Part shown: one piece after another, positions 40,649 to 58,868 of the stretch
How positions within the stretch are numbered: position 1 is the stretch's first letter
Layout of the letters: every line of letters starts with the position of its first letter
NCBI GenBank assembly: GCA_964392985.1
Contig: CAYMSF010000019.1
Location: 1,160-65,159 of the forward strand
Reading direction: 5' to 3'
DNA from: an uncultured Victivallaceae bacterium
Lineage (GTDB): Bacteria > Verrucomicrobiota > Lentisphaeria > Victivallales > Victivallaceae
DNA length: 64,000 bases
The notes under the pieces: generated by a model
What the model was told of the DNA's origin: nothing
Database searches by the model: none
What the model saw: the letters and a program-made list of their open reading frames with translations, nothing else
Position numbers and translations under genes: made by a program

Positions 40649-40658
40649 AGATAATATT

Positions 40659-41057: not shown

Positions 41058-41059
41058 CA

Positions 41060-41338
41060 ATGAAAAGAATGTACAGATTATATCTCGTGCTGACTGCCGG
41101 GTGTTTGATTTTAATTGGCGGAGGCTGTGCGCTCGTCAATGAAGTTAAGGATTCCAATCGGCAATACGATGAAAAGCAGAAGGAAAAAAAGGCCAATCCG
41201 CAGGAAAAAAGTTTATTGCCTCCATCCATGGCGAATTATAATGATACCGAAAAACAGGAACTTGAGGCATTTTACAAACATACAGATCAGGAACGCAAGG
41301 CGATTAAAAAACAGGTTTATGGCGGACTTATGCCATAA
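41060..41338 (+). CDS. small lipoprotein
   Basis: MKRMYRLYLVLTAGCLILIGGGC lipobox-like N-terminus. Charged, Lys/Glu-rich remainder. Confidence 0.55.
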   Translation: MKRMYRLYLVLTAGCLILIGGGCALVNEVKDSNRQYDEKQKEKKANPQEKSLLPPSMANYNDTEKQELEAFYKHTDQERKAIKKQVYGGLMP

Positions 41339-41415
41339 CTGGAATAACAACAGAAACCTGTTAGTAATACTATAATATTTAAAGTTATTTTTAAAAACAT
41401 ATAGAAAGGGTTATC

Positions 41416-41949: not shown

Positions 41950-41974
41950 AATTTAATAAAACAGGGTAAATATC

Positions 41975-42684: not shown

Positions 42685-45600
42685 TTACTGTTGTTCATTC
42701 AGTAATTTATAAACCCTGAACAATTCCGTAACTCCCCACGCCTGAGCGCCACAACCGCGCCAATGATGGGGATAGTCACCATCCATTATTTCAGGGGTAT
42801 GGCCCGGCACGCCACAGTTAACTTGCTCCGTCGCCGACATTAAAATAGCGGCAGCGCGTTTCCGGCAGGATTCCCCGCCAGTTATAAATAAAGCTTCACA
42901 ATATGAGGGGAATGGCCATGACCAGGCCGTGCCGTTGTGATATGCCGGTTTTCTTCTGGTATCTTCATCGCCGAGATAGTGCCCCCAGTAGGGGTGAACC
43001 GGATCATTCAGTAAGACGTTATTAAAGTAAACCGGGAGCGGATACTTTACCGGCAATGCTGCCAGAGAACGGATCCCGCCGGGAATGAGCAATTGTTCAC
43101 AATCCCGTAATATTTCAATCATAATTTTCTCGCCGGTTACGAGTCCCAGAGTTATTGCAAACAACTGGTTGCAACGACAGGCATCGTCAGCAACTGCCTC
43201 CAGCGCAGAAATTCCTGGTTTGGCATGAAGACAATCACTCATCCGCTTTAATTCATGCAGATAAAATAGCTGTTGTACACTATTTTTCACCTGTTTAGCC
43301 AGTTCTGCGAATTCATGGTTGCCGGTGATTTTGCTCATAAACCGGAGCGCGGCAAACCAGAGCGCCTGAATTTCAATGGGATAACCTTCACGGGGTGAAC
43401 CTGCCGGGAAGTTGGTATCCATCCACGTATAATGTCCGGGACTGAAAATCAAACCGGTTTTTGGGTCCATTGCGATGCCATTCGGAGTACCGGAACGGTA
43501 ATGTTTGATGATAGACTCGAGCACTTGACGCAAGTCACGGCCTCCGCAATTTTCATCGAGAATTGATTTTCCTGCGACATGCACATAGTCGGCAACGGCG
43601 GTGAAAAACCATAATGGCGCGTCACTCGTATCCCGGTTGGAATTATCACTTCCTCTAATCATGTTCGGCAAAGTGCCGTGGCGTTCAAATTTTGCAAACT
43701 GGTGAATTATTTCGCGAGATTCCTGCATGAATCCGGCGGCAATCATGCCGCGCAGACAAATAAAGGTGTCGCGCCCCCAATCAAGAAACCAGGGATAACC
43801 GGCAATGACGGTACGGGAATCGTCACGCTTGACGATAAAATGACGGATTGCTGCCCGCAGCGTAGTTTCCGGCGCCAGACGTTGTGGAACCTCCGGTAAG
43901 GGTTGCTCTGTGAAAGTTGCCGGACAATTTATCCCGGCGGCGAGAATAACTTTACCGTCGCCTTCGAGTTCTGCGCTGAAAAATCCCGGACTGAATAAAT
44001 CGGTATGACATTCCATGCCGCGTTCAGATTCCATCGGCAGATATTCCATATAATGCCATTCGTGTTGTTCTGCAAAACAGCCGGGGGAAATGGTTAACGC
44101 CAGATTTCGTTTTTTTGACGGATTGAAATCAAAGCCGTCTTTTCTGGCAAAAACGGCAGCGCGGAAAGCATTCTCGGGACCGGAAATAGCCTTGGTAACT
44201 TCGTGTACACTGCGGTCTTCAATATCGGGCCGGAGAATTATTTTTACCGGTTCAGCGTCAACCAGTGCTGTCGTTCCGTCATCCGCGGCAGGAAGCCGGT
44301 GAAAGATGAGCTGAATAAGATTTTTGTCTTCTGACATTTGCAGTGTCATTTGCAATTTAATAGTTTTCCCCTGTCCCACCGGAACGGAAAAGAGCCATTG
44401 TGATTCATTGTTGATGCCGGAGATAAATTCTTGTGTACATAACTGATTAATTTCCTGCGAATAGTCACGATAAACAACCCAGCCGCGACAGCGTGAAAAC
44501 ATAACCTGGCGATCGACGGGAAATGACGGGTTACAATTACCTGCCAGTATGGCATCATATTTACTGTTAAGAATGCCCCATGCCCCGCAGATTTGACTCA
44601 TTCCGCCAAGGTCATTGGTGCATAATGAATAAAGCAACTTCCGTCTGGTTTCAATACCGGTAAACGATGCATTGAAACTGGTATCGCCGGAGGCTGCCAG
44701 AAGTAGTAACGGGGCGGTTGAACGTTTTGTTTTACCTGGAGCATAACTGATAAACAGCAAATCCATTGCCAGATGCTTTTCCGGTGTTTCGGCAAAAAAT
44801 GCAATGGCAAAATGTCTGCCGTCTTTAAGGGGAAAGCTTTCCATGGTGCTTCTGGTCATACTGTCCAGTTTAATTTCAGCGCGGAAAGGATGTTGTGACC
44901 ACAGAATCAGGTTATGGTTCGGGGGAATCATCACCTGCCGGTTCTGGTCGATGCCGTCATGCCAATTTACTACTGGAGGCAAATCCGTCGCGAAAATTTC
45001 TTCGCAGGCGGTTAATGGAGATTTTGCCAGCAATAGCGCCAAACGTTTTACCTCATCATTCTCTTCAATCAGCGGTTGTGAACTGCCGGTAGTTGCCAGT
45101 AATTTTAAAGCAAGATGGCGGAATCTCTGTTCAATTATTTTTGCGGCCGGTAATAATTTGGCATTTACAGCTTTGTTCAGTTCATTTAAATCCTCAGTCC
45201 GGGATGAAAGGCAGTAAACTTGACCCGGGGGTAAATGGCAATAAAGGTTTTCTCCACGGTCTTCACAGAAAATTTCACCTTCGCTAAGCAGGTCGATAAA
45301 TCCTCCGGGCGGAACATCGAACAATTTTTTCTTCCAGAAAATACCGTTGGCATTGTGTTCATCCAGATTGACAAGAATAAGTAATGTCCGGTTGTGTTCA
45401 GCGGCGTGTCTCAACAGTGCCAGATTATTTCCTGATCCCGCTTGAATCAGTTCCAGTGTCGCGCCGGCAAAAAATACTGGATGGATTGTGAGGATTGTCT
45501 GCAGGCGGCGAATAAGTTCAACCTGATTTTCCGTCGCGTTCCAGTTCAAAGGTGTGGCACCGTGGACATCAACTTTTGCCGTGGCAAACCATTCCACGCC

Positions 45601-46944
45601 ATTGGTAATACCAAAACCACCGTTTTGTGAGAACAACGCACACATTGCGGTGCGCATACCGGCATATTTAATGTTTCTGGCAGCCAGACGGCTGTTATCA
45701 TGAGTTTCGGCGAAGTGAACTTGTAACCCCTTGCGGTATCCGGTCCGGATTGTTCCCGGCAGATAGTTTTCAATCTGACTCCGGTCATAGTTTTGGAACA
45801 ACTCTGAATACGCCCAATTCAGCCCGGCATCAACCAGCAGATGTTCCGTTACTGAAACCAGCCCGCCCAGCCCTTCAAGCAGAAAAATGGTTTCAGGATA
45901 TTCCCGGCGTACTTTGGCGACGATATATTCCCAGGCTTCGTATGGCAGCATATAACCGGCATCACAGCGGAAACCGTCAACCCCGTGGCGGCACCAGAAG
46001 AGGAAAACATCAGCCATCAAGGCATGAACTTCGGCATTTTTATAATTGAGTTTGCACAAATCCTCCCATGTAACGCCCCAGGCTCCCGGACTTACAAAGG
46101 TACCGTCATCCCGTCGGACAAACCATTCCGGATGCTCTATCTGTTCGCGCGAAGCCCAGCCGGTATGATTGACGGGAATGTCAATAAATAACCTGGCATC
46201 ATGCGAGTGGATGGCATCAACTAATTCAATGAATTGTTCCAGCGGGGTTGCCTTAGGGTCAAATTCAGCGTAAGCCGGATTGACATTAAAGAAATCCAGC
46301 GCTGCGAAAGGACTGCCGAACCGTCCCATTCTTCCGTATGTTGTCGGCTCAGGATGTATCGGCAGCAACTGAATTATCCGGCTGCGCAAAGTGTTCGTAA
46401 TGAAATCCAGATGACGGGTGACAGCGCGAAAAGTGCCGGATGGCGGAATTACCGTATAGCCGGCCTGGTCCAGTTCAGCGAGATTCGTGGAATTCAAAAA
46501 TGAATCAGTTTTGTTTTCCAATTGCGGACCGAATTGACGGACGAATGCGGTATAGATGGTGTTGGCACAGACTCCGGATGACGGTTCCACTTTAATTTTG
46601 GTGTTTTCGCCTTCCACCCACAAGGGAGTGTTGGAGCCTTTTGGCAGATACCAGGCTTTTGCTGCAAAACAACCGACCTCAACTAAAGGCAGAGTAAGCC
46701 GGAAATGACCGGGATTTATCTGGTGCATCGGCAAATCATGCCAATCGCGGGCCAGAACCGGCTCGTCATTTTCGGTATGTCCGATAATTTCGTCCCGCCT
46801 TACTGCCGCATAACCGATATTGGTCCGCAAAAATGCCATTCCTCCGGCGTGCAAACCGGTTTCCAGCTCAAACTTGAGGCAATCTCCACAATAACGCAAA
46901 ATTTCTAAACTTGATTCCGGTGTCTGTTTCAATTCTATTTCCAA
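42685..46944 (-). CDS. glycogen debranching enzyme-like fusion: GH13 alpha-amylase-family domain + amylo-alpha-1,6-glucosidase (GH133/GDE_C) domain
   Basis: GH13 regions I-IV: FIDIPVNHTG, VDGFRCDAGYM, FLLEGLG, FAETHDN. C-terminal GDE_C: GYPWFLDWGRDTFICLRG, YTWMD, YPIEIQALWF, YHNGTAWSWPF. One uninterrupted 1419-aa ORF. Confidence 0.85.
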   Translation of the reverse strand: MEIELKQTPESSLEILRYCGDCLKFELETGLHAGGMAFLRTNIGYAAVRRDEIIGHTENDEPVLARDWHDLPMHQINPGHFRLTLPLVEVGCFAAKAWYLPKGSNTPLWVEGENTKIKVEPSSGVCANTIYTAFVRQFGPQLENKTDSFLNSTNLAELDQAGYTVIPPSGTFRAVTRHLDFITNTLRSRIIQLLPIHPEPTTYGRMGRFGSPFAALDFFNVNPAYAEFDPKATPLEQFIELVDAIHSHDARLFIDIPVNHTGWASREQIEHPEWFVRRDDGTFVSPGAWGVTWEDLCKLNYKNAEVHALMADVFLFWCRHGVDGFRCDAGYMLPYEAWEYIVAKVRREYPETIFLLEGLGGLVSVTEHLLVDAGLNWAYSELFQNYDRSQIENYLPGTIRTGYRKGLQVHFAETHDNSRLAARNIKYAGMRTAMCALFSQNGGFGITNGVEWFATAKVDVHGATPLNWNATENQVELIRRLQTILTIHPVFFAGATLELIQAGSGNNLALLRHAAEHNRTLLILVNLDEHNANGIFWKKKLFDVPPGGFIDLLSEGEIFCEDRGENLYCHLPPGQVYCLSSRTEDLNELNKAVNAKLLPAAKIIEQRFRHLALKLLATTGSSQPLIEENDEVKRLALLLAKSPLTACEEIFATDLPPVVNWHDGIDQNRQVMIPPNHNLILWSQHPFRAEIKLDSMTRSTMESFPLKDGRHFAIAFFAETPEKHLAMDLLFISYAPGKTKRSTAPLLLLAASGDTSFNASFTGIETRRKLLYSLCTNDLGGMSQICGAWGILNSKYDAILAGNCNPSFPVDRQVMFSRCRGWVVYRDYSQEINQLCTQEFISGINNESQWLFSVPVGQGKTIKLQMTLQMSEDKNLIQLIFHRLPAADDGTTALVDAEPVKIILRPDIEDRSVHEVTKAISGPENAFRAAVFARKDGFDFNPSKKRNLALTISPGCFAEQHEWHYMEYLPMESERGMECHTDLFSPGFFSAELEGDGKVILAAGINCPATFTEQPLPEVPQRLAPETTLRAAIRHFIVKRDDSRTVIAGYPWFLDWGRDTFICLRGMIAAGFMQESREIIHQFAKFERHGTLPNMIRGSDNSNRDTSDAPLWFFTAVADYVHVAGKSILDENCGGRDLRQVLESIIKHYRSGTPNGIAMDPKTGLIFSPGHYTWMDTNFPAGSPREGYPIEIQALWFAALRFMSKITGNHEFAELAKQVKNSVQQLFYLHELKRMSDCLHAKPGISALEAVADDACRCNQLFAITLGLVTGEKIMIEILRDCEQLLIPGGIRSLAALPVKYPLPVYFNNVLLNDPVHPYWGHYLGDEDTRRKPAYHNGTAWSWPFPSYCEALFITGGESCRKRAAAILMSATEQVNCGVPGHTPEIMDGDYPHHWRGCGAQAWGVTELFRVYKLLNEQQ

Positions 46945-47061: not shown

Positions 47062-48816
47062 CTATAAATGCGGCAACTCTGCCGGTAGAGTTGCCGCCCA
47101 CTTGGGGATACCGCGTCCGCGCAATTTTTTGACTGTTTTTCTGTGATGTTCAATTATCCATTCCCGTTCATGTTTTAAACCCGGATCACGATATGGCACT
47201 CCTGCCGTTGATTGCATAATGATATTCATCTCTTTTGTCGACAGTTGCGGAACATTGAGCATTTCTGTCCTGGTCGCACAAGTACCGCCGCGTTTTCTGC
47301 CGAATGGAGTTATTTCCGAGCAGAAAAACTGATTTTTGAGTAATGCGCCCCGGACAGGATAGGCACTGCTGTAAGTTAAAAGCATTCCCTGCGGTTTCAT
47401 TAAGGACTTTAACAGCCTGAAAAAGTCGAAAGTCCAAAGTTCAGGATTCACTTCTGCAGAAAATGCGTCCAGGAAAATCAGGTCAAACTGTCCACCTGAT
47501 GCGGTCGTAGCGGTTATTCTGGCATCGCCGGCAATCAAAGAGAGGTCTACATATTCATGCCGCCATATCTTTTTCTCATATAATTGCTGCAGTATCTCCC
47601 GTTCCATCGGGTCGATGCCATCGAGCGCTGCTGCAGCTTTAAGGACACGCAAATCATTTTCCAGCGCAACGATTGACAATTTTCCTGTGGCCTGTTCGAT
47701 TGCGGCGCGTACCGCGGCAAAACTGTTATAGCCAAGCCCGTAACCGACATCCAGCAACCGGATATTTTCGCCATTTTTTAACCTTTCAGCCAGTCGGGAA
47801 GGTTTTACAAACTTTAATTCGGCTTCTGAAACCGCGCCGGCGATAGAGTGGAAGTGCTGCCGGTATGCTGGATGATAAAGCGTCTTTGAACCGTCTGCGG
47901 TAACAACTCCGGTCAGTCCGGATTCAGTGTTTTGCATTTTGTCAATGATGAGTTGAATAACCTGACTTTTCTTCATCCACCATTTGGGTGCGATAAGTTC
48001 ATTAGCGTCAGCATCGGCAACCAGACGCATAATGACCCAGTCCCCGGGCAGTTGGCGCAGAAAAGCAACTGCGGCATCAGCATATTCATATTCATTCAGC
48101 GTTACCAGCCATTTCTCTCCTTGTTGAGCGTATAATTTTGCCAGCTCCGTATTTTTTAAAACCTGGAGTTGATGAAGTTTAATTCCGCTAAATGGCAAAT
48201 CAGCGACCCTTGCTGCAGTTTGTGCAAAATCAACCGGAGTTTCCCCGGGCAAACCGAGAATAAGGTGCGCCGCCACCGGAATCTGGCGTTCCGCCAGTTG
48301 GCGTACTACTTTTTCAACGGCTCCAAAATCATGGCCTCGCTTGATTAGTTTTAAGGTTTCATCATTTGCAGTTTGAACACCGAGTTCAATCCACACTTCA
48401 TATCTGGAGCGATACGACTCAAGTAAAGTTTGCACCTCATCGTTCAGGCAATCCGGCCTGGTTGAGATAATCATCATTTTAAAGTCCGCCAGTCCCAGAA
48501 CTTCATCATAATAACGTTGCAGCATTTTCACCGGAGCATAAGTATTGGTAAATGACTGAAAGTAGGCAATATAGGGCGGTCTTGCGTCATAACGTTCGCG
48601 GAGATATCGTTTGCCCGATTCAACCTGATCGGTGAGATTCAAGTTGTACTGCAAATGTTTTGCGCGGTTGCCGTCCTCCGCGCAATAAATACAGCCATTG
48701 CCAAAACGTTGTTCCCGGTTCGGGCATCCCAGCGGCAGATCTATCGCGATGCGTTGCAACTGCTGCCCATAACGTTTCTGTAAATAATCTTTGAAGAAAA
48801 AGAGTTTGTTCATCAT
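47062..48816 (-). CDS. fusion of TIGR01212-family radical SAM protein (YhcC/YtqA-like) and MnmC-type (MnmD/DUF752) SAM-dependent methyltransferase
   Basis: N-terminus: LPLGCPNREQRFGNGCIYC...SFTNTYAP...ISTRPDC...WIELGVQT. C-terminus: DGSKTLYHPAYRQHFHSIAGA...IRLLDVGYGLGYNSFA...FDLIFLDAFSAEVNPELWTFDFF...GMLLTYSSAYPVRGALL. Confidence 0.8.
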   Translation of the reverse strand: MMNKLFFFKDYLQKRYGQQLQRIAIDLPLGCPNREQRFGNGCIYCAEDGNRAKHLQYNLNLTDQVESGKRYLRERYDARPPYIAYFQSFTNTYAPVKMLQRYYDEVLGLADFKMMIISTRPDCLNDEVQTLLESYRSRYEVWIELGVQTANDETLKLIKRGHDFGAVEKVVRQLAERQIPVAAHLILGLPGETPVDFAQTAARVADLPFSGIKLHQLQVLKNTELAKLYAQQGEKWLVTLNEYEYADAAVAFLRQLPGDWVIMRLVADADANELIAPKWWMKKSQVIQLIIDKMQNTESGLTGVVTADGSKTLYHPAYRQHFHSIAGAVSEAELKFVKPSRLAERLKNGENIRLLDVGYGLGYNSFAAVRAAIEQATGKLSIVALENDLRVLKAAAALDGIDPMEREILQQLYEKKIWRHEYVDLSLIAGDARITATTASGGQFDLIFLDAFSAEVNPELWTFDFFRLLKSLMKPQGMLLTYSSAYPVRGALLKNQFFCSEITPFGRKRGGTCATRTEMLNVPQLSTKEMNIIMQSTAGVPYRDPGLKHEREWIIEHHRKTVKKLRGRGIPKWAATLPAELPHL

Positions 48817-49091: not shown

Positions 49092-49119
49092 TTGACAAAT
49101 AGCGACAATAGATTATAAT
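49092..49119 (+). promoter_or_regulatory. sigma-70-type promoter for the IclR gene
   Basis: TTGACA (49092-49097), 16-nt spacer, TATAAT (49114-49119). Confidence 0.6.
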
Positions 49120-49127
49120 TATAGTTA

Positions 49128-49150
49128 CAAATTCTAATATATAGAATTTG
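49128..49150 (+). promoter_or_regulatory. 23-bp perfect palindrome, candidate IclR operator
   Basis: CAAATTCTA-ATATA-TAGAATTTG starts 9 nt after the -10 hexamer, overlapping the predicted transcription start. Confidence 0.55.
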
Positions 49151-49187: not shown

Positions 49188-49952
49188 ATGAATAACACAC
49201 TGCAAAATGGATTTATGCTGCTGGAGCATCTGGCGGCAACTGCGGATGAATGTTCAGTCAAAGAGTTGGCGGAACATTTCAAATTGCCGAACAGTCATGT
49301 GTGCCGGTTATTGAAGACGCTGACAGAGTCGGGTTATTTGCAACAAACGCCAGGTTCACGCAAATACCGGATCAGTTTAAAGATTTTTTGTCTTTCCAAT
49401 GCGCGGTTGCGGAAGCTTACGTTACGGCAAAAGGCTCACGGATATTTGCAGAAACTGGCGGCAAAAACCGAAACACAAGTATATTTAAGCGCACCGTTCA
49501 ATGGTTTGTCAATAGTTATTGATACTTTTTTTCCAGTGGCATGCGCAGATGATGCCGGGTTGGCGATTGGGCAGGTACATCCGGTAAATCGCAGCGCCTG
49601 CGGAAAAGTCTGTGCGGCCTATGTGCAAGATGACCAGATTGATGCTTTTCTTGCCGGAGTTGACTGGAGCGCCAGAACAACTCATACCATCACTTCGCCG
49701 GAACAATTCAAACTGGAACTGGCGAAAGTGAGGCGGGAAAAAATTGCCACGGTAGCGGCGGAAACCGAATTAGGAGTGGGGGCAGTCGGCGCGCCGATTT
49801 TCAACGCGGCGGGGGAACTTGCCGGAGCGATTGGCGCGGTATTGCCGGTAAGATCTTCCTGGCCGGTTGAACTTTGGGATAAGTTTAAAACTGAAACCCG
49901 GTCAATTGCGGCATCAATTTCGCTTGCGCTCGGATATGAGATGAAATATTGA
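49188..49952 (+). CDS. IclR family transcriptional regulator
   Basis: Winged HTH (VKELAEHFKLPNSHVCRLLKTLTESGYLQQ) plus an IclR effector domain (ELGVGAVGAPIFNAAGELAGAIG). Confidence 0.9.
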   Translation: MNNTLQNGFMLLEHLAATADECSVKELAEHFKLPNSHVCRLLKTLTESGYLQQTPGSRKYRISLKIFCLSNARLRKLTLRQKAHGYLQKLAAKTETQVYLSAPFNGLSIVIDTFFPVACADDAGLAIGQVHPVNRSACGKVCAAYVQDDQIDAFLAGVDWSARTTHTITSPEQFKLELAKVRREKIATVAAETELGVGAVGAPIFNAAGELAGAIGAVLPVRSSWPVELWDKFKTETRSIAASISLALGYEMKY

Positions 49953-50032
49953 TTTTTTATAAATTTGGAATGTTTTATCGTTTTTAAATATAATGTCCCA
50001 AAATGTAAAAACTTAACAAAGGAGTTTTACAG

Positions 50033-50878
50033 ATGAACGCCGCACAAGTAAAAAAAGCCGCCAAGAAATTTGGCGCGGACCTGGTCGGAATTGCACCGAT
50101 ATCCCGTTTGGCACATCTCCCCAAAGAAAGTAACCCGCTGTCAATTTTCCCGGAAGCGAAATCGGTCATTGTCATCGGTCGCCGGATCCTGCGCGGTTCA
50201 CTGCGCGGGGTTGAAGAAGGCACCAGTTTTGACGGCACCTACCACTCATTCGGTTTCCGCTTTCTTGAAGACAATTTTCTGTCAAAAACCACCTATGATT
50301 TAAACTGCTGGATTGAAGCCCAGGGGTTTGAAGCTGTTCCGCTCTTTTCCTACGATCATGATGGCAGTGTTCAAGCGGTGCCGGTCGCGCCCGGAAAACC
50401 GGCGCCGAACGTTTATCTGAAATGGCAACTTTCCGCTCAAGCTGCCGGACTCGGTGAAATCGGATTGGGCGGTCTGTTCCTGACCCCGGAATTCGGACAT
50501 CGGCAACGTTTCGCCACCCTCCTTACCGATCAGGAACTAGAAGCCGACCCGGTAATGCCGCCGAAAACAATATGCAACAAATGCAAGGCCTGTATTGAAG
50601 CCTGCCCGTTGAATGCTTATGCCAAAACCACTCACAAAGAAGGCATCCCCGGCAGTGAATGTACCGTTGCCGATCTTGACGATAAAATTTGCGCAAAATG
50701 CGAGAACGGCGCCTGGATTCTACCGGGACGGTTCGATCATGTTGACCGCTGCGCCGCATCCTGCGGTCGTGCCTGCCTCGTCGCTTTGGAAACGAAAGGC
50801 GCGCTCTCAAATAAATTTGATAATGTATTCAGAAAACGTAGTGTCTGGAAGCGTTCTGTTCCCGGCCGCGCCAAGTAA
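50033..50878 (+). CDS. QueG/reductive-dehalogenase-superfamily Fe-S protein (single module, 281 aa)
   Basis: AKKFGADLVGIAPISR...AKSVIVIG, AAGLGEIGLGGLFLTPEFGHRQRFATLLTDQELEAD, CNKCKACIEACP, then RCAASCGRAC. No Tat or signal peptide. Confidence 0.7.
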   Translation: MNAAQVKKAAKKFGADLVGIAPISRLAHLPKESNPLSIFPEAKSVIVIGRRILRGSLRGVEEGTSFDGTYHSFGFRFLEDNFLSKTTYDLNCWIEAQGFEAVPLFSYDHDGSVQAVPVAPGKPAPNVYLKWQLSAQAAGLGEIGLGGLFLTPEFGHRQRFATLLTDQELEADPVMPPKTICNKCKACIEACPLNAYAKTTHKEGIPGSECTVADLDDKICAKCENGAWILPGRFDHVDRCAASCGRACLVALETKGALSNKFDNVFRKRSVWKRSVPGRAK

Positions 50879-50896
50879 CACTAAGGAGCAAATACC

Positions 50897-52033
50897 ATGA
50901 GCAAAAAATTAACCTCGCAGATGATCAAAGATCTGGCGAAAAAGATTGGTGCGGGCGGCGGCGGCGTGGATATCGTCGGCATCGCTAACATCGAACGTTT
51001 TGCCGGAGCTCCTGAACGGATGCATCCGAAGAATATTTTTCCGGATTGCAAGTCCGTAATCTCTATTGTGCAGCCAATTCCGCGAAGCACCTACCGCGGT
51101 ATCACTGAAGGCACCCACTGGTCAAATTACACCTATTACTCATACAACCGTCTCAATACGCTGTTCCGGCCCATGGTCACCTATGAATTGGCGCGGATGA
51201 TTGAAGACTGCGGCTTTGAAGCAGTTCCAGTCTTCCCCGGCGTGCCTGAAATGTATCCGAACAAACCCGATCCGGTCGCTCCCGACCGTCCGGTTCCGGA
51301 TGTATATCTGAATGTGCGTATTGCCGGAGTAGCTTGCGGTTTGGGTGAAATCGGCTGGTCAAAAGTCTTCATTCATCCGGTTTATGGACCGCGCGTCCGA
51401 TTGGGTACCATCCTGACTGATGCCGTATTAGAGCCTGACCCGTTGATTAAACCCAAAACATTATGCAAGCACTGCATGAAGTGTGTTCCGGACTGCCCGG
51501 GCAATGCGATTCCGCGAAAGGGCGAAAAACCGAGCATCAAAATTAATATTGAAGGGCAGGAATATGAGTGGGGCGATGTTCACATGGGTCGTTGTACCGC
51601 AACGCACCACGGCATTAACTACAAAGCCTCGCCATTCCTTAAACGCTATTTCCCGGGTTTCGATCTGGAGGTGACTGAAAGTAATATGTCTGAAGAACTG
51701 GCATATAGAATAACTTATACGATGGCGCAGGCCAACTGGTATCGTCAAAATCCGGAATTTCCCAGCAATGATTTGAATCCGTTTTACAAGCAGATCATGC
51801 AACATGTTGGATATTTTGCGGTTTGCGGCGCCAAAGGTTGCATCAGATCCTGTATGGAATTCCAGGAAAAGGCCAAAAACATCAAACAGCATACTTTCAA
51901 GACTCCGGTATTCCCCGGTCCGAAATGGGCATTGAAAAAACCAAGTGAGGATGAAACCGGCGGGATTGTTGAAAACAAGAAACTAAAAAAACTCTATCAG
52001 GATCCGGACTTGGATGCCGGTTGCTGGAAGTAA
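50897..52033 (+). CDS. QueG/reductive-dehalogenase-superfamily Fe-S protein (single module, 378 aa)
   Basis: VDIVGIANIERF...CKSVISIV, ACGLGEIGWSKVFIHPVYGPRVRLGTILTDAVLEPD, CKHCMKCVPDCP, GRCTATHHG, CGAKGCIRSC. Confidence 0.7.
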   Translation: MSKKLTSQMIKDLAKKIGAGGGGVDIVGIANIERFAGAPERMHPKNIFPDCKSVISIVQPIPRSTYRGITEGTHWSNYTYYSYNRLNTLFRPMVTYELARMIEDCGFEAVPVFPGVPEMYPNKPDPVAPDRPVPDVYLNVRIAGVACGLGEIGWSKVFIHPVYGPRVRLGTILTDAVLEPDPLIKPKTLCKHCMKCVPDCPGNAIPRKGEKPSIKINIEGQEYEWGDVHMGRCTATHHGINYKASPFLKRYFPGFDLEVTESNMSEELAYRITYTMAQANWYRQNPEFPSNDLNPFYKQIMQHVGYFAVCGAKGCIRSCMEFQEKAKNIKQHTFKTPVFPGPKWALKKPSEDETGGIVENKKLKKLYQDPDLDAGCWK

Positions 52034-52057
52034 TCAACCAGTTTAATGACAAAAAAT

Positions 52058-52091
52058 ATGCCCGGGAATTAATTCCCGGGCATTATTTTTT
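52058..52091. terminator. bidirectional rho-independent terminator between convergent genes
   Basis: ATGCCCGGGAATT/AATTCCCGGGCAT perfect 13-bp palindromic hairpin, flanked by AAAAAAT on one side and TATTTTTT on the other. Confidence 0.8.
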
Positions 52092-52103
52092 ACTGTAGTC
52101 CAA

Positions 52104-52850
52104 TCAATCAGCGAATGCAGCGTGAATACATTCAACGCATTGTTTTAACGCGGGAACAGGATTCTGCGCATCGCCTTCATATTCCAGAGTTACATAGCCG
52201 TCGAAATCAATTGATTTCAGAAAATCGGCGAGCCCTTTCAGATTCAGGTTGCCAGTACCGACGACGACATCCTCGGGTTTGCCGGCCCGGTTGAAAATAA
52301 AATCTTTCAGATGGAGACCGTAAAGCCGTTTTTGATGTTTTTTAGCGATTTCGAGCGGGTCAAAGCCGCTATCGAGCATCCATGCCGTATCGAGGCACAA
52401 CCCGACGCGGTTACTGCTCTTCTGTAACAGATTTTCTATCGCCCATGGTGCGCCCAACCGGTGATGTCTGCCGTGATTATGCAGTGCGAGTTTTTTGTTA
52501 TACTCTTCCGCCAGTTTTTCTGCTACCGCAAGACCGGCGTCATCGGCAAAATCAGCGGACAGCGTTGCAAAACCCGCCAATCTGGCAAATTCAAATGCCG
52601 GGCGCGCCAGCGCAACATCAGCACCGAAACCATGTACTCCGAAAGCGGAAATTGTGATTCCACCATCCTTGTAGGCTTTTAGTGTAGGGGCCGGATTATT
52701 GATATCGATATGCACGCCACAAATTTCGAGGTGATTCACACCGCATTCGCGCAATGCGGTAATCAGTTGCGGCGCATGTTTGAATTCACGAAAACACCAG
52801 CTTTGAATTGCCAGTCGAGAAACTATTTTACTGCCAGTAGACATAATCAT
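52104..52850 (-). CDS. sugar phosphate isomerase/epimerase (xylose isomerase-like TIM barrel)
   Basis: LALHNHG, CLDTAW, GLHLKD and VTLEYE are the metal-ligand pattern of the AP endonuclease 2/xylose isomerase-like fold. Confidence 0.8.
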   Translation of the reverse strand: MIMSTGSKIVSRLAIQSWCFREFKHAPQLITALRECGVNHLEICGVHIDINNPAPTLKAYKDGGITISAFGVHGFGADVALARPAFEFARLAGFATLSADFADDAGLAVAEKLAEEYNKKLALHNHGRHHRLGAPWAIENLLQKSSNRVGLCLDTAWMLDSGFDPLEIAKKHQKRLYGLHLKDFIFNRAGKPEDVVVGTGNLNLKGLADFLKSIDFDGYVTLEYEGDAQNPVPALKQCVECIHAAFAD

Positions 52851-52862
52851 CTTCCTTTATTG

Positions 52863-53888
52863 TTAAATTTTAGTCCAATCAAAAATCACCGTGGTATATT
52901 CATCCTTGCGATGCATCAAACCTTGATAAACATCCTGACACTGCGCCGGAGAAACGAGATGAGTCAGCAGCGGCTTGATTTTTAATCTGCCGGACTGAAT
53001 CAAATCCTTCAGAATATTACAATTCCTGGTCAAACTGTGTTTACAGCCACCTTCCGGACGGGTCGGATAACGCCATTCCAACGCACCTTTCACCGTAACA
53101 CAGCCGTGATCCCACAAATGTGAATAATTAAGGAATTTAGTCAGATTACACTGGTATTCACCGCGCGGAGAACCTAGCAATACCAATTCACTGCGTGGTC
53201 CGCCAAGTTGCGGCGCCTGTGCCGCTACGGCCGGAACGCCAGTTGCTTCGACAATAACATTAGCTTTGACGCCGCCAGTCAGTGCGAGCAGTTGTTCGAG
53301 CACATCGCCACAGGCGGGGTTGATGGTTTCAGTAATGCCGCAGGCGCGGGCTTGTTCAAGGCGGTGTTGCGCTAAATCAATGCCGATTACTCTGGCTCCG
53401 GCCAATTGGTAAAGCTGCGCCGCCAGATTGCCGATTGCTCCCATCCCGTAAACGACAACTATATCGCCAAGTTCAGGCGGTGATACGCGCAGCGCGGTGA
53501 TTGCCACTGCCGCCAGACGAATAAAGAGCAGTTCCGGCAGATTGCCGGATTCCGGCAATTTTACGGTAACATTGTAATTTGAGTCTAAATCCACGTTAGA
53601 GATTTCACGGTGCGCAGTATATGCGACCACGATTTCGCCGATTTCATAACCGGTTACGTCCGGTCCGATTGCGGTTACCTTGCCGACTGCGGCATAACCG
53701 AGATTAAACGGCAGTGGCGCCCAACTTTCCATCCCTTGATAAATGGCGAGCTCAGTTCCAGGGCTGACCAACGAATAGAGTGTTTTGATTTGGATTTGAC
53801 GCGCTCCAGGCGGTTGTTGCGAAGTTGCCTGCAGTTTGGCTTGCAACGGCTCAGTAATAATGATAGCTTGACTGTTCATGTTGTCCAT
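52863..53888 (-). CDS. medium-chain dehydrogenase/reductase (zinc-type alcohol dehydrogenase-like) oxidoreductase
   Basis: GroES-like N-terminus (SLVSPGTELAIYQG...GYAAVGKV). Rossmann VVVYGMGAIGNLAAQL. Confidence 0.8.
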   Translation of the reverse strand: MDNMNSQAIIITEPLQAKLQATSQQPPGARQIQIKTLYSLVSPGTELAIYQGMESWAPLPFNLGYAAVGKVTAIGPDVTGYEIGEIVVAYTAHREISNVDLDSNYNVTVKLPESGNLPELLFIRLAAVAITALRVSPPELGDIVVVYGMGAIGNLAAQLYQLAGARVIGIDLAQHRLEQARACGITETINPACGDVLEQLLALTGGVKANVIVEATGVPAVAAQAPQLGGPRSELVLLGSPRGEYQCNLTKFLNYSHLWDHGCVTVKGALEWRYPTRPEGGCKHSLTRNCNILKDLIQSGRLKIKPLLTHLVSPAQCQDVYQGLMHRKDEYTTVIFDWTKI

Positions 53889-53974
53889 CCTTGTAATAAT
53901 CAGGGTTTATAATATATTATAGCTTTATTCCGCATAATATCTTTAGCTGAAATTATCAAAATTTATCTGAAATT

Positions 53975-54868
53975 ATGATTTTAAATGAATTATCACCGCA
54001 TGTACGCAATATCAAAATAAATGTTTCTCGCGGACTTACTCCGGCATTTATTGATCCTGAACATGTCTTCACTTACCTGAAATCCGGTCATGGTTTTTTC
54101 AATATGGCAGATATGCAGTATGCGGTTCAACCCGGCGATATGATAATTATACCGCCATATCTTTTGCACATTATTAACTGTGCTAAAAATGAACCGCTGC
54201 TGCAATATGTCATTCATTTTGACTTGCGCTTTGACCCGGAAACCCCTGTCGCATTGACGCGCAAAGATGGAATGAGTTATAATCGGTCTGCTGAATGTTG
54301 CGGCAACTTATTTACGGACGTTCCCGCCGTGGTTTCAATTCCAGCGCCGGAGCGCCGCCGGGTTGAAGAAATTTTCCGCAGAATGGAGGATGAGGCTAAA
54401 CTTAAGACGGCATATTATGAATTACCGTTAAAGGCCGGTATGCTGGAACTTTTGACAATTTTTTTCCGGAACAGCCAGTTAAACAACACGCCGCCGCGTT
54501 GTGCCGGCGGAAAAACCTGGTTGAATCTGGAACGGGCGCTGCAATACATTCAAGCCCATTATCACGAACCGCTGGAGTTGGCGGCAGTCAGTCGGGAAGC
54601 GGGAGTGTCACTCAATTACCTCTGCCGGATATTCAAAGATTATACCAGCACTTCGATCCACCAGTATATCAATGCAGTACGCATCGTCGAAGCTAAACGC
54701 CGTATTGCTGCAACTGACTGCGGTTTTAAAGTAATTGCGGCGGAATGCGGTTTTTCCAGTGTACATCTGTTCAGCCGGATTTTTAAGTCTGTTTCCGGTC
54801 AGACACCGTCGGAATACCGGAATAAAATCCACGCACCGGAACAGAAACCGAAATCAATCGCTTTGTAA
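53975..54868 (+). CDS. AraC family transcriptional regulator
   Basis: Cupin-like N-terminus. C-terminal LAAVSREAGVSLNYLCRIFKDYT...IAAECGFSSVHLFSRIFKSVSGQTPSEY. Confidence 0.9.
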   Translation: MILNELSPHVRNIKINVSRGLTPAFIDPEHVFTYLKSGHGFFNMADMQYAVQPGDMIIIPPYLLHIINCAKNEPLLQYVIHFDLRFDPETPVALTRKDGMSYNRSAECCGNLFTDVPAVVSIPAPERRRVEEIFRRMEDEAKLKTAYYELPLKAGMLELLTIFFRNSQLNNTPPRCAGGKTWLNLERALQYIQAHYHEPLELAAVSREAGVSLNYLCRIFKDYTSTSIHQYINAVRIVEAKRRIAATDCGFKVIAAECGFSSVHLFSRIFKSVSGQTPSEYRNKIHAPEQKPKSIAL

Positions 54869-55051
54869 TAGTTGTCGTCGGGGCTGACTGGACAAGCTAG
54901 CTGTACGTCATACAGGCAATACGACCTATATGACCTGATGGTTCTGGATGTCCAATTACAAAAAAAGATACTTCAGGCGAACCTGAAGTATCTAAAAGTA
55001 ATCAACACAACATATTTCACTGCCTTGCTGAGAGTGACTCAGGCGGTGAAA

Positions 55052-57424
55052 TTACTTGGTTTTTTTGTTTGCTGCCGGACAATGTCTCAGGCACGGTTCC
55101 AGAATACAAGTACGGCATTTCATGACCGGATCTTTTTGACTGCAAGCATTGGCAAGATTTTCAATCGTAATTTCGCCTTTAGGAATTTTCGGATTGGTGG
55201 TGCTGCCGATCATCGCCGGACCTTCATCCGGATGCAGACTGTAACGTTTTGCCCAGTCACAACGATACCGCGGAATAATCGGATAATCAACCGTAACTCC
55301 GGCAACATTAATTTTAACACTTTTGCCCTTGATTGCTGACATCGGACATTTTTCCGTGCAAATTTTACATTTGCCGCAGACTTTAGCCGGTTTTGACGGC
55401 TGATCATAATCCAGTACAGCATCAGTAACGATACAAATCCGGCGTTGATGCGCTCCATGTTCAGGCGTTAACAAAGCGCCGCTGGTACCAATTTCGCCCA
55501 TTCCGGCGGCAACTGCTTCCAAAGCGCTGCATCTCATATCCGGCAACGGACCGCGCGGCGAGTCGGTATATGAACCGGCGCCGAGCAGATTTTGTGTCAT
55601 TATTGACTTGTAGCCCATTTTATCGAGGTAGGTGACCAGTTCAAAGGCGGCAAAAACCAGTTCAAACGCAGTTTGGAATTGATGGTAATTGTAGCAACCG
55701 ATCTGTTGGCTCTTTTCCAGTCCGGAATTGCGGATGAGTTCATCCGGATAGTGCATACCGAGAACGATAACCGATTTTGCGCCTTTAACGAAGTCTTTCG
55801 GTTTGCGGATTTTCAAATCCTCGTCAATAATTTGCGGTATGTATTTGCCGTGATAACTCAATTTAGCATTACTGTCAATGATTCTTTTTGATAGTTCTTT
55901 TTCATCAACAATTTTCTTCAATTGGTCGGCAACCGGGTCAAGGAGTGCCGCCGGAGCTACGCCGAACATACTGACCAGATTACTTTCCGCCAGCACTTCC
56001 AGTTTGCGACGTAACTGTTTACCGGAAAGCTTTTTCAACTTGTCGGTTTCCATTTTGCCGGAAATACGGTTGGATGAATCCACCGGGGCGCTCGTGGTAA
56101 TAACACCGACCATTTGATTGATACCGAATTCAGGTGTGACAAAAACGCCTTTTTCGATTTTGCCGAGGTCAGTCATGGCGGCTAATTCATCAGCGCGACT
56201 GTCTTTCGCCGGGGATCCGGTAATCGCAACCGCACTGTAACCATAATCTTCAATCATTCGAACAAGGCGTATCAGATTCCGTTGCATTTTTTGATGCGCA
56301 GCATGATCATAAGGCTGCTCGCATTTCTGTACTAATTTCGTCTGTTTGGCTTCGGGAGGAACCTGGAAGGCAAAAGCAAATACGGTCTTTACGCCGGGAG
56401 CTTCTTTTACCGCGAACTTGCCGGCTTTCGTATTTGTTTTCAACGGTGCCACCGCCACCAGATCAATGCCTAGTTCAACGGCACGGGCGGTAATGTCATC
56501 ACGCATCTTGCGCAATGTCGGCATCGTATCCGGATAACGCTGATTGATGCGGTTCTGAGCAATCATGCGGTCGCGACCAAAACTTTTCTTGTCGGTGCGT
56601 AAATGTGGCGGAATACAGACTTTCTGACAGACGCCACGTTCATGCCCACGTATACCGGCGCTATGCAGTTCATCTAAAATAACTTTCTCATCAATGTGTT
56701 TTCCGGCCTTCTTCAATGTATCTGAATTCAGGTCCAGGTTGAAATGTTCCGCCCAGGCGCAACGCCAGATATTTTTATTGGAATACTTATAGGTCTTGCC
56801 GCCAATTTCGACCACGTGCGGTTTCATCGAATTAAAATCGGTTTTCATGGCGCGGGAAGGACAATGCTTGATACATTCGCCGCACATATCGCAAAGGCGC
56901 GGACCATCATACATCGGAGTCGGCACCAGTTGCGCATCGGTAACAATGGAGATGAAACGGCAGCGACTGCCAAATTCAGGAGTAATCGTCAAACCCGACC
57001 AGCCGATTTCTCCCAAGCCTGCAGCAACTGCGGCATGCATGTGGGATAAATCAGGAGCAAACAGACTCGGAATGCCTTCATATTGACGGTAACGCCAGAT
57101 ATTGGAACTGACCACGGCTATCGCTTGATGGCTATGATCGTTCAACAACCTGACGACCCGGTAGGCGGCACGATCAAGCAACGAATTATGGTCCAACCAA
57201 CCGCCGGGACTGTGATCTTGCGGTTCTGGTTCACCGCCCATTTCGGTCCAGGTGTCGGTGATATGAATCGCCGCGACAATTACTGTCTTCGACTCTGGCA
57301 GAATCGCCTTGGGGCTGATCAGATAAGGTGCTTTGTCCCAGCGCTCAACCGGTCCGAAGCCAACCAGATCCATACCGTAATTCAACATTTCCGCTTTTAC
57401 TTTTTCTGTTAATACCCGGTTCAT
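55052..57424 (-). CDS. three-module QueG/reductive-dehalogenase-superfamily Fe-S protein (790 aa)
   Basis: Module 1: YGMDLVGFGPVERW, AAGLGEIGWSGLTITPEFGSRCRFISIVTDAQL, CDMCGECIKHCP, RCAWAEH. Module 2: ELGIDLVAVAPLK, VFVTPEFGINQMVGVITT, no Cys motif. Module 3: LVSMFGVAPAALLD, AAGMGEIGTSGALLTPEHGAHQRRICIVTDAVL, CGKCKICTEKCP, RCDWAKR, CRTCILEPCLRHCP. Confidence 0.7.
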   Translation of the reverse strand: MNRVLTEKVKAEMLNYGMDLVGFGPVERWDKAPYLISPKAILPESKTVIVAAIHITDTWTEMGGEPEPQDHSPGGWLDHNSLLDRAAYRVVRLLNDHSHQAIAVVSSNIWRYRQYEGIPSLFAPDLSHMHAAVAAGLGEIGWSGLTITPEFGSRCRFISIVTDAQLVPTPMYDGPRLCDMCGECIKHCPSRAMKTDFNSMKPHVVEIGGKTYKYSNKNIWRCAWAEHFNLDLNSDTLKKAGKHIDEKVILDELHSAGIRGHERGVCQKVCIPPHLRTDKKSFGRDRMIAQNRINQRYPDTMPTLRKMRDDITARAVELGIDLVAVAPLKTNTKAGKFAVKEAPGVKTVFAFAFQVPPEAKQTKLVQKCEQPYDHAAHQKMQRNLIRLVRMIEDYGYSAVAITGSPAKDSRADELAAMTDLGKIEKGVFVTPEFGINQMVGVITTSAPVDSSNRISGKMETDKLKKLSGKQLRRKLEVLAESNLVSMFGVAPAALLDPVADQLKKIVDEKELSKRIIDSNAKLSYHGKYIPQIIDEDLKIRKPKDFVKGAKSVIVLGMHYPDELIRNSGLEKSQQIGCYNYHQFQTAFELVFAAFELVTYLDKMGYKSIMTQNLLGAGSYTDSPRGPLPDMRCSALEAVAAGMGEIGTSGALLTPEHGAHQRRICIVTDAVLDYDQPSKPAKVCGKCKICTEKCPMSAIKGKSVKINVAGVTVDYPIIPRYRCDWAKRYSLHPDEGPAMIGSTTNPKIPKGEITIENLANACSQKDPVMKCRTCILEPCLRHCPAANKKTK

Positions 57425-57485
57425 CTTTTTTCTCCGTTGTTTAGGGAGCCATTAAAAAATACAAGAGTTACTTTTTTAAATAATC

Positions 57486-57502
57486 TTTCCATATTATGGA
57501 AA
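57486..57502. promoter_or_regulatory. 17-bp palindromic operator (promoter-proximal), candidate IclR site
   Basis: TTTCCATA-T-TATGGAAA, located about 20-40 nt downstream of the predicted start of the minus-strand transcript. Confidence 0.6.
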
Positions 57503-57529
57503 ATGCAAATTAATAAATTTACGTTTATA

Positions 57530-57558
57530 ATTATAACTGAGGTGACAGTCATTGTCAA
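57530..57558 (-). promoter_or_regulatory. consensus sigma-70-type promoter for the 790-aa gene
   Basis: Minus strand reads TTGACA (57558-57553), 17-nt spacer, TATAAT (57535-57530). Confidence 0.65.
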
Positions 57559-57582
57559 TTAAAACTATTTAAAAACCTGTAA

Positions 57583-57603
57583 ATTTTCCATATTATGGAA
57601 AAT
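57583..57603. promoter_or_regulatory. 21-bp palindromic operator (promoter-distal), candidate IclR site
   Basis: ATTTTCCATA-T-TATGGAAAAT has the same core as 57486-57502. Centres are 99 bp apart and bracket the promoter. Confidence 0.6.
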
Positions 57604-57617
57604 AGCCATTATAACAG

Positions 57618-58370
57618 TTATTCATTATACTGTAATTCGGCTATTTCCATAACGGCTTGACGCAAAACGGTAAGAATTTTTTCCTTTAACTGCTGACCGC
57701 ATCTGAACGCCGGCGAATAGCAACCGATTGCACCCAGGAGATGTTTACGGCTGTCTATCACCGGCATGGCAAATGAATTTACCCGGTTAGGATTAGGGTA
57801 AATGAGGCACTGGCGTTCTTTTCTGATTTTTACGATGTCGCGTTCATATCCCGGCCAGTTTTTTTCCGGTGGTCCATTGTTCTTAACAATGAGCTGGTAA
57901 TCTTCGGGAGTGGCAAAAGCGGTCAATACCCGACCAGTGGGTTGTTCATAAATACTGGTGGTTTCAACGACCTGCTGGTCAATGCGAATCACCTGCAGCG
58001 CCGGTTCGGTACGAATCAACACGACCCGTTTGCCGCCATGCAAAGTTACGAAAACCATCGCCTCATTAATTTCAGCGGTATAACGCTCCATTATTATTGA
58101 AAGATTTTCCTTGAAGAGGTTGTTTTCGACTTGATTGAGCAGTCCGAGGCGACGGCTTTTCGGTCCGGCAATATAACGACCGGCGGTATTCTGAGCCACA
58201 TACCCGCAAACTGACATCGTTTTAAGCAAATTATGTGCGGTATTGGGTGGTAATCCGAACCTGGCGGCGAGAACACCTAATTCAATCCCGCGCATTTCCT
58301 GATCTTCAAAAACGAGCAGGGAAAGGAGATCGAGCGCTTTTTTTACCGATTTTACCGGAACCTCTGCCAC
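57618..58370 (-). CDS. IclR family transcriptional regulator
   Basis: Winged HTH (GVLAARFGLPPNTAHNLLKTMSVCGYVAQ) plus an IclR effector domain (NSFAMPVIDSRKHLLGAIG). Confidence 0.9.
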   Translation of the reverse strand: MAEVPVKSVKKALDLLSLLVFEDQEMRGIELGVLAARFGLPPNTAHNLLKTMSVCGYVAQNTAGRYIAGPKSRRLGLLNQVENNLFKENLSIIMERYTAEINEAMVFVTLHGGKRVVLIRTEPALQVIRIDQQVVETTSIYEQPTGRVLTAFATPEDYQLIVKNNGPPEKNWPGYERDIVKIRKERQCLIYPNPNRVNSFAMPVIDSRKHLLGAIGCYSPAFRCGQQLKEKILTVLRQAVMEIAELQYNE

Positions 58371-58451: not shown

Positions 58452-58868
58452 TTATTTCCAAATCATAACGAGCGTTCCGGCAGTTATCAAACCGCCGGCA
58501 AGCATAGTTTTAAAAGTCAACTGTTCACCCAGAATAATAAAAGACAACAGCAAAGTAAGTACAATACTGCATTTGTCTATCGGGGCTACTTTAGAAACGT
58601 CACCCAGGGAAATTGCTTTGTAATAGAACAACCATGACAAACCGGTGGCCAAACCGGACAAGAGCAAAAAAGTCCAGTTGGTTTTATTCAATTTGCTGAT
58701 TCCGGCATGACCGCCTTGAGCAAAAACTATACCCCATGCCAGTAAAATAACTACGACAGTCCGGATTGCCGTGGCGAGATTGGAATCAACGCCTTTGATG
58801 CCGATTTTGGCTAAAATAGCAGTGAGGGCGGCAAACAACGCCGACAATAATGCAAATAACTGCCACAT
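58452..58868 (-). CDS. EamA-like (DMT superfamily) half-size transporter
   Basis: 138 aa with four predicted TM helices. LLSALFAALTAILAKIGIKGVDSNLATAIRT is typical of a single EamA domain. Confidence 0.75.
   Translation of the reverse strand: MWQLFALLSALFAALTAILAKIGIKGVDSNLATAIRTVVVILLAWGIVFAQGGHAGISKLNKTNWTFLLLSGLATGLSWLFYYKAISLGDVSKVAPIDKCSIVLTLLLSFIILGEQLTFKTMLAGGLITAGTLVMIWK

Follow-up and report, generated by a model that had tools for sequence, protein, structure and literature searches.

Two candidate IclR-controlled units of modular RdhA/QueG-like Fe-S proteins in an uncultured Victivallaceae bacterium

What is the task of several diverged relatives of reductive dehalogenases (RdhA) and of the epoxyqueuosine reductase QueG when they are encoded together with their own regulators? 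This question is raised by positions 49188-58370 of the window, the stretch of 64,000 nucleotides of contig CAYMSF010000019.1 from an uncultured Victivallaceae bacterium that was analysed here, where three genes encode the iron-sulphur (Fe-S) proteins A, B and a protein of 790 amino acids (aa). We propose, with a probability of a little under 0.6, that the locus holds two independently repressed units, each for a cytoplasmic ferredoxin-type reductase of an uncharacterised clade of class III cobalamin/[4Fe-4S] proteins. Its basis is homology and predicted fold, the number of modules and their ligand patterns, conserved synteny, the operators and promoters, and the uneven conservation among the modules. 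All eight open reading frames (ORFs) of the locus were confirmed, and those of the two units, with the modules of the 790-aa protein, are the following.

49188-49952, plus strand: iclR1, IclR-family regulator of 254 aa (Pfam HTH_IclR 6e-14, IclR_C 1e-28)
50033-50878, plus strand: gene of the A subunit, 281 aa, one RdhA/QueG-like module (RDH model 1.7e-9, QueG model 5e-9)
50897-52033, plus strand: gene of the B subunit, 378 aa, one RdhA/QueG-like module (by homologs, ligands and fold)
55052-57424, minus strand: gene of the 790-aa protein, whole, three modules
56531-57424, minus strand: its N-terminal module, aa 1-298 (PceA match 2e-9; densest invariant residues)
55991-56530, minus strand: its middle module, aa 299-478 (A1 profile hidden Markov model (HMM) 4.7e-8; one Cys only)
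55052-55990, minus strand: its C-terminal module, aa 479-790 (QueG chains 1e-3; Fe-S-bearing)
57618-58370, minus strand: iclR2, IclR-family regulator of 250 aa (Pfam HTH_IclR 3.5e-10)

Among the NCBIfam models, TIGR02486 (RDH) was the top match for A, B and the 790-aa protein, with 38, 45 and 106 bits against a curated cut-off of 160.35 bits, and TIGR00276 (QueG) gave 35.5, 32.6 and 56 bits, all below its equivalog cut-off of 200 bits. The matches to these two models, with E-values of 1e-9 to 3e-30, covered the GLGEIG..TPEFG..TD and CxxCxxCxxxCP core. Pfam gave weak ferredoxin matches for the three proteins, no dehalogenase-domain family at E<=0.01 and no HEAT domain, and weak DUF1730 signals were present alongside those of TIGR00276. 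In addition, PDB chains of PceA were matched at 2e-9 (8e-13 with the B-family profile), as were chains of NpRdhA and QueG; the match of the B-family profile to the QueG chains was limited to residues 140-211. Together with the Foldseek matches given below, these results bear out a preliminary description of the locus, in which the proteins had been assigned to the RdhA/QueG superfamily and set apart from generic ferredoxins. They are diverged members of that superfamily, and A, B and the 790-aa protein are neither QueG nor model-defined RdhA.

The preliminary description had also counted five QueG/RdhA-like Fe-S modules in the three genes. Alignment of the five putative modules with MAFFT revealed a common scaffold, and HMMs built from orthologs, run over the whole 64-kb window, found exactly five modules in three ORFs, the weakest being the middle module of the 790-aa protein. 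This module (aa ~299-478) has a single Cys and lacks a cluster motif, so that the count of five stands but only four modules carry Fe-S ligands; the middle module has the same fold and is vestigial. No twin-arginine motif or hydrophobic leader was found at the N-termini of the three Fe-S proteins, which in the predicted fold make up the first helix and strand, and the earlier view that the proteins are cytoplasmic, without a twin-arginine translocation (Tat) or Sec signal, is upheld. Furthermore, the intergenic gaps of 18 and 80 nt are too small to hold an rdhB gene.

Three modules, B and the two outer ones of the 790-aa protein, have the eight-ligand pattern of QueG and RdhA, CX2CX2CX3C...C...CXnCX3C. 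In B it takes a 4+1+3 form (C190/193/196/200, C233 and C310/315/319) that is invariant in 30 orthologs, with ten invariant cysteines in total; the ligands of Bacillus subtilis QueG are C188-X2-C191-X2-C194-X3-C198...C214...C240-X2-C243-X3-C247 (PMC5175355). The ligands of the C-terminal module are C683/686/689/693, C722 and C773/778/782, and those of the N-terminal module are C178/181/184/188, C222, C266/C270 and possibly H261. This His261 is invariant where the other modules carry Cys and may be a His ligand. The cysteines of A (181/184/187/191, 220/223 and 244/248) make up two putative [4Fe-4S] sites, and the A-type pattern is 4+2+2 or 4+2+3. A, B and both outer modules of the 790-aa protein retain a counterpart of PceA Arg305 (G-x-R-x-R); in the middle module, Met takes the place of the RdhA-type Arg. 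The PceA segment GPNVR aligns with GSRCR in the N-terminal module and with GPRVR in B, and R156, R661 and R168 are invariant in the family alignments. In PceA, Arg305 belongs to a proposed proton-transfer pair with the catalytic Tyr, and QueG is without it (PMC4646009).

The AlphaFold2 model of the 790-aa protein was confident (predicted local distance difference test (pLDDT) 88, predicted template modelling score (pTM) 0.92), which suggests that its modules pack as one defined body; the model of B had a pLDDT of 77 and a pTM of 0.78. Foldseek returned 46 matches at E<=1e-3 for each model, all of them QueG, PceA or NpRdhA. The best matches of the 790-aa model were NpRdhA chains (4e-13, ~580 aligned columns), with 215-340 aligned columns against PceA and QueG (~215-220 against QueG), and QueG was the best match of the B model (5e-9), followed by PceA and NpRdhA. 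The next, weaker matches were CblC/CblD for both models, and NfsA matched the 790-aa model weakly. Long cytosolic RdhA-like proteins (>700 aa) are monomers with an extra vestigial cobalamin-binding core domain (PMC12219181), and the fold comparison of the 790-aa protein fits this picture. At the level of the predicted fold, the models combine a nitroreductase/CblC-like domain with a two-[4Fe-4S] ferredoxin domain and place the proteins in the class III superfamily.

The family is strongly conserved. B had 825 homologs, the 120 best listed being 64-90% identical, which were labelled 'hypothetical', 'ferredoxin' or (at the Joint Genome Institute, JGI) 'epoxyqueuosine reductase' and none of which had a precomputed Pfam domain. 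The 790-aa protein had 383 homologs, and the 120 best listed were 50-95% identical, except for one truncated 581-aa entry. An exhaustive comparison of B with 1.84 billion cluster representatives gave 2,103 matches at E<=1e-3 and 106 at E<=1e-30, a mixture of proteins of ~250-380 aa and ~730-830 aa. A genome scan gave 214 matches, mostly in Lentisphaerota (among them the cultured Victivallis vadensis and Oligosphaera ethanolica DSM 24202), with some in Kiritimatiellia and a few in Planctomycetota. Lentisphaeria and Victivallaceae metagenome-assembled genomes (MAGs) held the closest relatives of the window genes, and the homologs of B came from MAGs of ruminant gut, digesters, groundwater and lakes. 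No informative fused domains were found in longer or distant family members, which were mostly fragments of multi-module proteins. These results suggest a conserved family outside every curated model tried, with a predicted reductase role.

The gene arrangement is conserved as well. In the best 80 of the 214 genome matches, which gave ~70 distinct loci, an iclR gene is followed by one or two A-type genes (A1 and A2) and then by B (49 three-gene and 23 two-gene loci); the IclR gene precedes A/B in most loci for which upstream sequence is present, and the remaining neighbours vary. Similarly, most of 41 loci of the 790-aa family have an IclR2-type gene as the immediate upstream neighbour of the 790-aa homolog. 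The earlier expectation of conservation elsewhere under dedicated one-component regulators thus holds for iclR-A-B in ~70 loci. An A/B unit lies within 8 kb of a 790-aa homolog in ~9 of 38 metagenome loci, which indicates that the two systems tend to co-travel. The only other recurrent neighbour was a prepilin-like DUF1559 protein, which is abundant in these genomes, and the long antisense ORFs seen there were artefacts of the way in which ORFs were picked.

Several related loci deserve separate mention. In one of them (L022, 1756-11134) two paralogs of the 790-aa protein, of 780 and 774 aa, are encoded in tandem, next to an iclR2 gene and an iclR1-A1-A2-B unit in divergent orientation, indicating that the family has expanded inside single genomes. 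Two loci hold distant members that are ~36-41% identical to B: in L126 (1620-4744) the regulator is AraC instead of IclR, and in L127 (3-2048) three distant paralogs are consecutive, one of them without CxxCxxCxxxCP. The ends of JBAYIO010000088.1 and Ga0172379_10003539 (24,674 bp each; L007, L008 and L088) are mirror-ordered, forming a large inverted duplication that is probably an assembly palindrome, and this contig was counted as one locus.

Promoters, putative operators and terminators that delimit the units were located in the window.

49092-49119, plus strand: promoter P1 of the iclR1-A-B unit, TTGACA-16-TATAAT (12/12 sigma-70 consensus)
49132-49146, unstranded: putative operator O1, palindrome TTCTAATATATAGAA, just downstream of P1
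57530-57558, minus strand: promoter P2 of the 790-aa gene, TTGACA-17-TATAAT (12/12 consensus), between the O2 boxes
57586-57600, unstranded: putative operator O2a, TTCCATATTATGGAA, upstream of P2
57487-57501, unstranded: putative operator O2b, TTCCATATTATGGAA, downstream of P2
52058-52083, unstranded: bidirectional intrinsic terminator between the convergent genes of B and a TIM-barrel protein (11-bp stem, 7 GC pairs, T-runs on both strands)
54966-54993, minus strand: terminator downstream of the 790-aa gene (12-bp stem, then a T-run on the minus strand)

Three copies of the palindrome TTCYA-W5-TRGAA (TTCYAWWWWWTRGAA) are present in the 64 kb, where 0.03 would be expected by chance, and all of them are at P1 or P2. 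A box like O1 (<=4/23 mismatches) lies directly upstream of iclR in ~30 related loci of different lineages, and paired O2 boxes occur in the spacer between iclR2 and the 790-aa gene in L005, L007, L009, L083 and L088-L091. Hence, of the two distinct candidate operators that had been suggested for the two IclR genes, the operators themselves are conserved, but they are variants of one motif. IclR1 and IclR2 are 20% identical, and the near-identical half-sites despite this low identity make cross-regulation possible. No such box was found in the intergenic region between the AraC and MDR genes that separate the two units. The lack of a box at that promoter and the positions of the terminators indicate three transcription units, two of which belong to the reductase system: unit 1 is P1-O1-iclR1-A-B, and unit 2 is iclR2, then O2a-P2-O2b and the 790-aa gene. 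Both regulators carry IclR-family domains and have palindromic boxes, conserved in relatives, at their presumed target promoters, and both units are predicted to be under IclR repression. We regard this regulatory and architectural description as well supported.

The modules differ in how strongly they are constrained. Within the same sets of genomes, the mean pairwise identity in the A/B operon was 75% for B, 52% for A1 and 56% for A2 (A-type orthologs average 52-59%), and in the 790-aa protein it was 73% for the N-terminal, 44% for the middle and 54% for the C-terminal module. Each system thus has one highly constrained module and one or two looser ones. This asymmetric conservation suggests that one module does the chemistry and the rest serve as partners or wires, much as in the active and vestigial domains of NpRdhA, in CblC-CblD and in the PceA dimer. 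By sequence conservation, the probable catalytic modules are B and the N-terminal one of the 790-aa protein, and the A subunit is probably accessory.

We suggest that each enzyme would be an assembly of paralogous modules, with A and B joined in a hetero-oligomer. The strongly constrained module (B, or the N-terminal module of the 790-aa protein) would be the catalytic unit, and A and the middle and C-terminal modules would serve as pseudo-dimer partners and extra [4Fe-4S] wires, like the vestigial domain of NpRdhA. Each IclR would bind TTCYA-W5-TRGAA boxes at its consensus promoter and would let go of the promoter on a small molecule, probably the substrate. Low-potential electrons would pass via the clusters to the active site, probably with a base-off corrinoid, which would reduce a widespread non-xenobiotic metabolite. 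The self-contained design of iclR plus reductase points to electrons from general ferredoxin and to no dedicated pathway partners, and the fact that B changes so little between MAGs from gut, digesters, groundwater and lakes speaks for a common natural compound over niche organohalides. A more specific version of this proposal is that the proteins are a third class III cobalamin/[4Fe-4S] family, made of obligate hetero-oligomers or fused pseudo-oligomers, for the inducible reduction of a common metabolite in anaerobic glycan degraders of the Planctomycetes-Verrucomicrobia-Chlamydiae (PVC) phyla, for example the deoxygenation or dehydroxylation of a cyclitol- or sugar-derived compound. We put this version forward tentatively, as less likely than not.

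A number of points weigh against cobalamin-dependent reductases built in this way. Class III enzymes have no sequence motif for cobalamin binding (PMC4646009), it may be that the conserved GLGEIG loop does no more than shape the surroundings of the clusters, and neither a cobalamin riboswitch (no Rfam match) nor a cobalamin uptake gene was found in the window. No counterpart of the catalytic Tyr of RdhA and QueG was placed by sequence; at position 113, where the B family has its best candidate Tyr, the window protein has Phe. The catalytic residues of QueG are a D-Y-H motif and Asp134 in B. subtilis numbering (PMC4646009, PMC5175355); no D-Y-H motif was found in B or the 790-aa protein, and A has S-Y-D-H at 106-109, in an order that differs from D-Y-H, the alignment of these loops being unreliable without coordinates. 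The B model is a moderate one, in which loops 64-90 and 115-120, possible active-site loops, are of low confidence. The two systems are parallel by analogy only: profile-profile comparisons group A1, A2 and A in one clade and set B apart in a second, the three 790-aa modules are about equally distant from both, and a one-to-one match of these modules with A1, A2 and B is absent, by which we rejected the idea that the 790-aa protein is a simple A1-A2-B fusion. Finally, full-text literature searches returned no paper describing the clade and no experiment or expression data.

Some of these points would be accounted for if the corrinoid had been lost and the modules were Fe-S-only or flavin-assisted reductases, or electron-transfer proteins. 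The nitroreductase/CblC-like fold binds flavin in relatives, and NfsA is among the weak Foldseek matches; the middle module of the 790-aa protein is clearly vestigial, no B12-related gene or riboswitch was found nearby in the window, and sequence identity to RdhA and QueG does not reach beyond the core near the clusters. However, all characterised proteins that join this fold to a two-cluster ferredoxin domain bind cobalamin (PMC4646009), and the RdhA active-site Arg is present in all four cluster-bearing modules. Moreover, strong constraint is seen in B and in the 790-aa N-terminal module outside the cluster region as well, which argues for a complex active site. We therefore consider the loss of the corrinoid doubtful and favour the cobalamin-dependent reductase.

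The preliminary description had treated the locus as a single integrated catabolic locus, with two iclR genes flanking it and an araC gene inside. The ORF coordinates and Pfam agree with this arrangement, and the IclR, AraC, TIM and MDR assignments are above the Pfam thresholds. Between the two units lie the following genes.

52104-52850, minus strand: xylose-isomerase-like TIM barrel, 248 aa (Pfam AP_endonuc_2 2e-17)
52863-53888, minus strand: MDR-family dehydrogenase, 341 aa (Pfam ADH_zinc_N 4e-19)
53975-54868, plus strand: AraC-family regulator, divergent from the MDR-TIM pair (HTH_18 9e-21, AraC_binding 4e-7)

If the whole 9-kb region were one inducible pathway, the MDR and TIM enzymes would prepare a sugar- or cyclitol-derived substrate for the cobalamin/Fe-S reductases. 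The genes lie side by side in the window, as they do in its nearest relatives (L005-L008 and L088), the substrate of QueG is a carbocyclic epoxy-diol (PMC5175355), and the window enzymes weakly match proteins of an inositol route (MDR to IolM, 7e-16, its other matches being generic MDR; TIM to IolE, 8e-10). In addition, on the Victivallales chromosome OY787460.1 (1235286-1256422; L001, 296-11137), A1-A2-B end a same-strand operon without iclR that encodes, in order, a LacI/GntR-type regulator, IolM (scyllo-inosose 3-dehydrogenase; 507 bits, cut-off 450), a second MDR dehydrogenase, IolO (322 bits, cut-off 300) and an IolN-like creatininase-fold hydrolase, with two unknown proteins (389 and 427 aa) before A1-A2-B. 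In no other locus are the reductases tied to a pathway that can be recognised, here the Thermotoga-type inositol route, and we take L001 as a hint only, because its arrangement is unique among all fetched loci. Against a common pathway, the MDR, TIM and AraC genes lie beside the reductases only in those nearest relatives and are absent from ~65 of the 70 distinct A/B loci and from 37 of the 38 metagenome loci of the 790-aa protein; genes of these three kinds are very common in the genomes concerned. A TIM gene beside the 790-aa homolog in another locus (L002) is not an ortholog of the window gene (30% over 128 aa), the AraC/MDR promoter does not share the operator, and a terminator separates B from the TIM gene. 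One pathway is thus unlikely, and the integrated locus is not supported: the MDR-TIM-AraC trio is a separate neighbouring unit outside the conserved system. The best PDB relatives of the TIM barrel are uncharacterised sugar phosphate isomerases/epimerases. We also considered CbiR, a cobamide-remodelling enzyme of the AP_endonuc_2 family (PMC7733943), for this protein and dropped it, as there was no cobamide gene context and the relatives were only generic sugar isomerases.

The same data bear on whether the proteins are true catabolic cytosolic reductive dehalogenases that act on natural organohalides. RDH is the best NCBIfam match of all three proteins and reaches 106 bits in the 790-aa protein, the equivalent of PceA Arg305 and an NpRdhA-like tandem-module layout are present, and cytosolic rdhA-like genes have been described beside IclR or MarR regulators (PMC12219181). 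Nevertheless, all scores are below 160, no Pfam dehalogenase domain was matched, the hosts are fermentative glycan degraders, and the 64-90% identity of the best listed B homologs across varied habitats fits a ubiquitous substrate better; dehalogenation is, in our judgement, improbable. That one of the genes is the queG of the organism and the others are decaying paralogs can be set aside, as the preliminary description had done: the JGI label of many members and the weak TIGR00276 and DUF1730 matches are outweighed by TIGR00276 scores of 33-56 bits against 200, a QueG profile match over residues 140-211 only, the lack of a HEAT-repeat match, the predicted dedicated IclR repression, and genes that are all intact and under strong purifying constraint across phyla.

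The flanks of the region are unrelated to the reductase system. Upstream, the locus is adjoined by a gene (47062-48816, minus strand) for a 584-aa fusion of radical SAM (with Radical_SAM_C) and Methyltransf_30, by its Pfam name an S-adenosyl-L-methionine-dependent methyltransferase. The flank also holds a gene (42685-46944, minus strand) for a 1,419-aa protein with an alpha-amylase catalytic domain and the N- and C-terminal domains of a glycogen debranching enzyme. Farther away, a gene (37299-39509, plus strand) for a family B DNA polymerase that includes an RNase-H-like exonuclease domain adjoins a low-GC stretch (40001-42000, GC 0.405) and may belong to a mobile element. Past iclR2, a half-size EamA-type transporter gene (58452-58868, minus strand; 138 aa) has no operator box nearby and is not conserved with the reductase system; an ion channel gene also lies in the flanks.

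The known reaction types of class III B12/Fe-S enzymes are reductive dehalogenation and epoxyqueuosine reduction, and further families have been predicted (PMC4646009); according to the authors of the QueG structure, such families are hard to spot because a cobalamin-binding motif is lacking (PMC4646009). With its strong conservation, multi-module build, own sensor-regulator and cultured hosts, the clade described here is a concrete candidate for one of them. The ligand of the IclR regulators should name the substrate, and the reaction, once found, would add to B12 enzymology and could reveal an electron sink or a catabolic step in gut and sediment PVC bacteria. In addition, the automatic 'epoxyqueuosine reductase' labels of these proteins are misleading and would inflate predictions of queuosine synthesis and B12 dependence.

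Among the known systems, CblC-CblD (MMACHC-MMADHC) resembles the proposed assemblies in that a cofactor-binding nitroreductase-like module is paired with a vestigial one in a heterodimer, but it is eukaryotic, has no Fe-S domain and serves B12 trafficking. PceA, which functions with RdhB, gives the strongest sequence match over the GLGxxG..TPEFGxRxR..TD and CxxCxxCxxxCP core and works as a dimer, a precedent for partner contacts between such modules; the window proteins differ from it in having no Tat leader, anchor gene or respiratory context and in their active-site insertions. QueG shares the N-terminal cobalamin-domain fold and the 4+1+3 cysteines, including the 'RC' fifth ligand, whereas the window proteins lack its HEAT-like tRNA-binding domain, show no clear DYH motif and carry the RdhA-type Arg. 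Moreover, QueG is monomeric, and the window family is multi-module or putatively multi-subunit, predicted to be repressor-controlled and present as several paralogs per genome. From cytosolic RdhA proteins of the NpRdhA/BhbA type the window proteins differ in scoring below the RDH cut-off and in having no fused NAD(P)H reductase domain; the window family has three modules (two with clusters) or separate A and B polypeptides, belongs mostly to PVC phyla and shows no sign of a halogenated substrate. With NpRdhA and BhbA, however, the window proteins share a cytoplasmic location without a Tat signal or RdhB anchor, tandem CblC-like modules of which one is vestigial, a two-cluster ferredoxin domain, a conserved active-site Arg and a one-component regulator nearby, and it is the NpRdhA-type cytosolic RdhA that they work most like.

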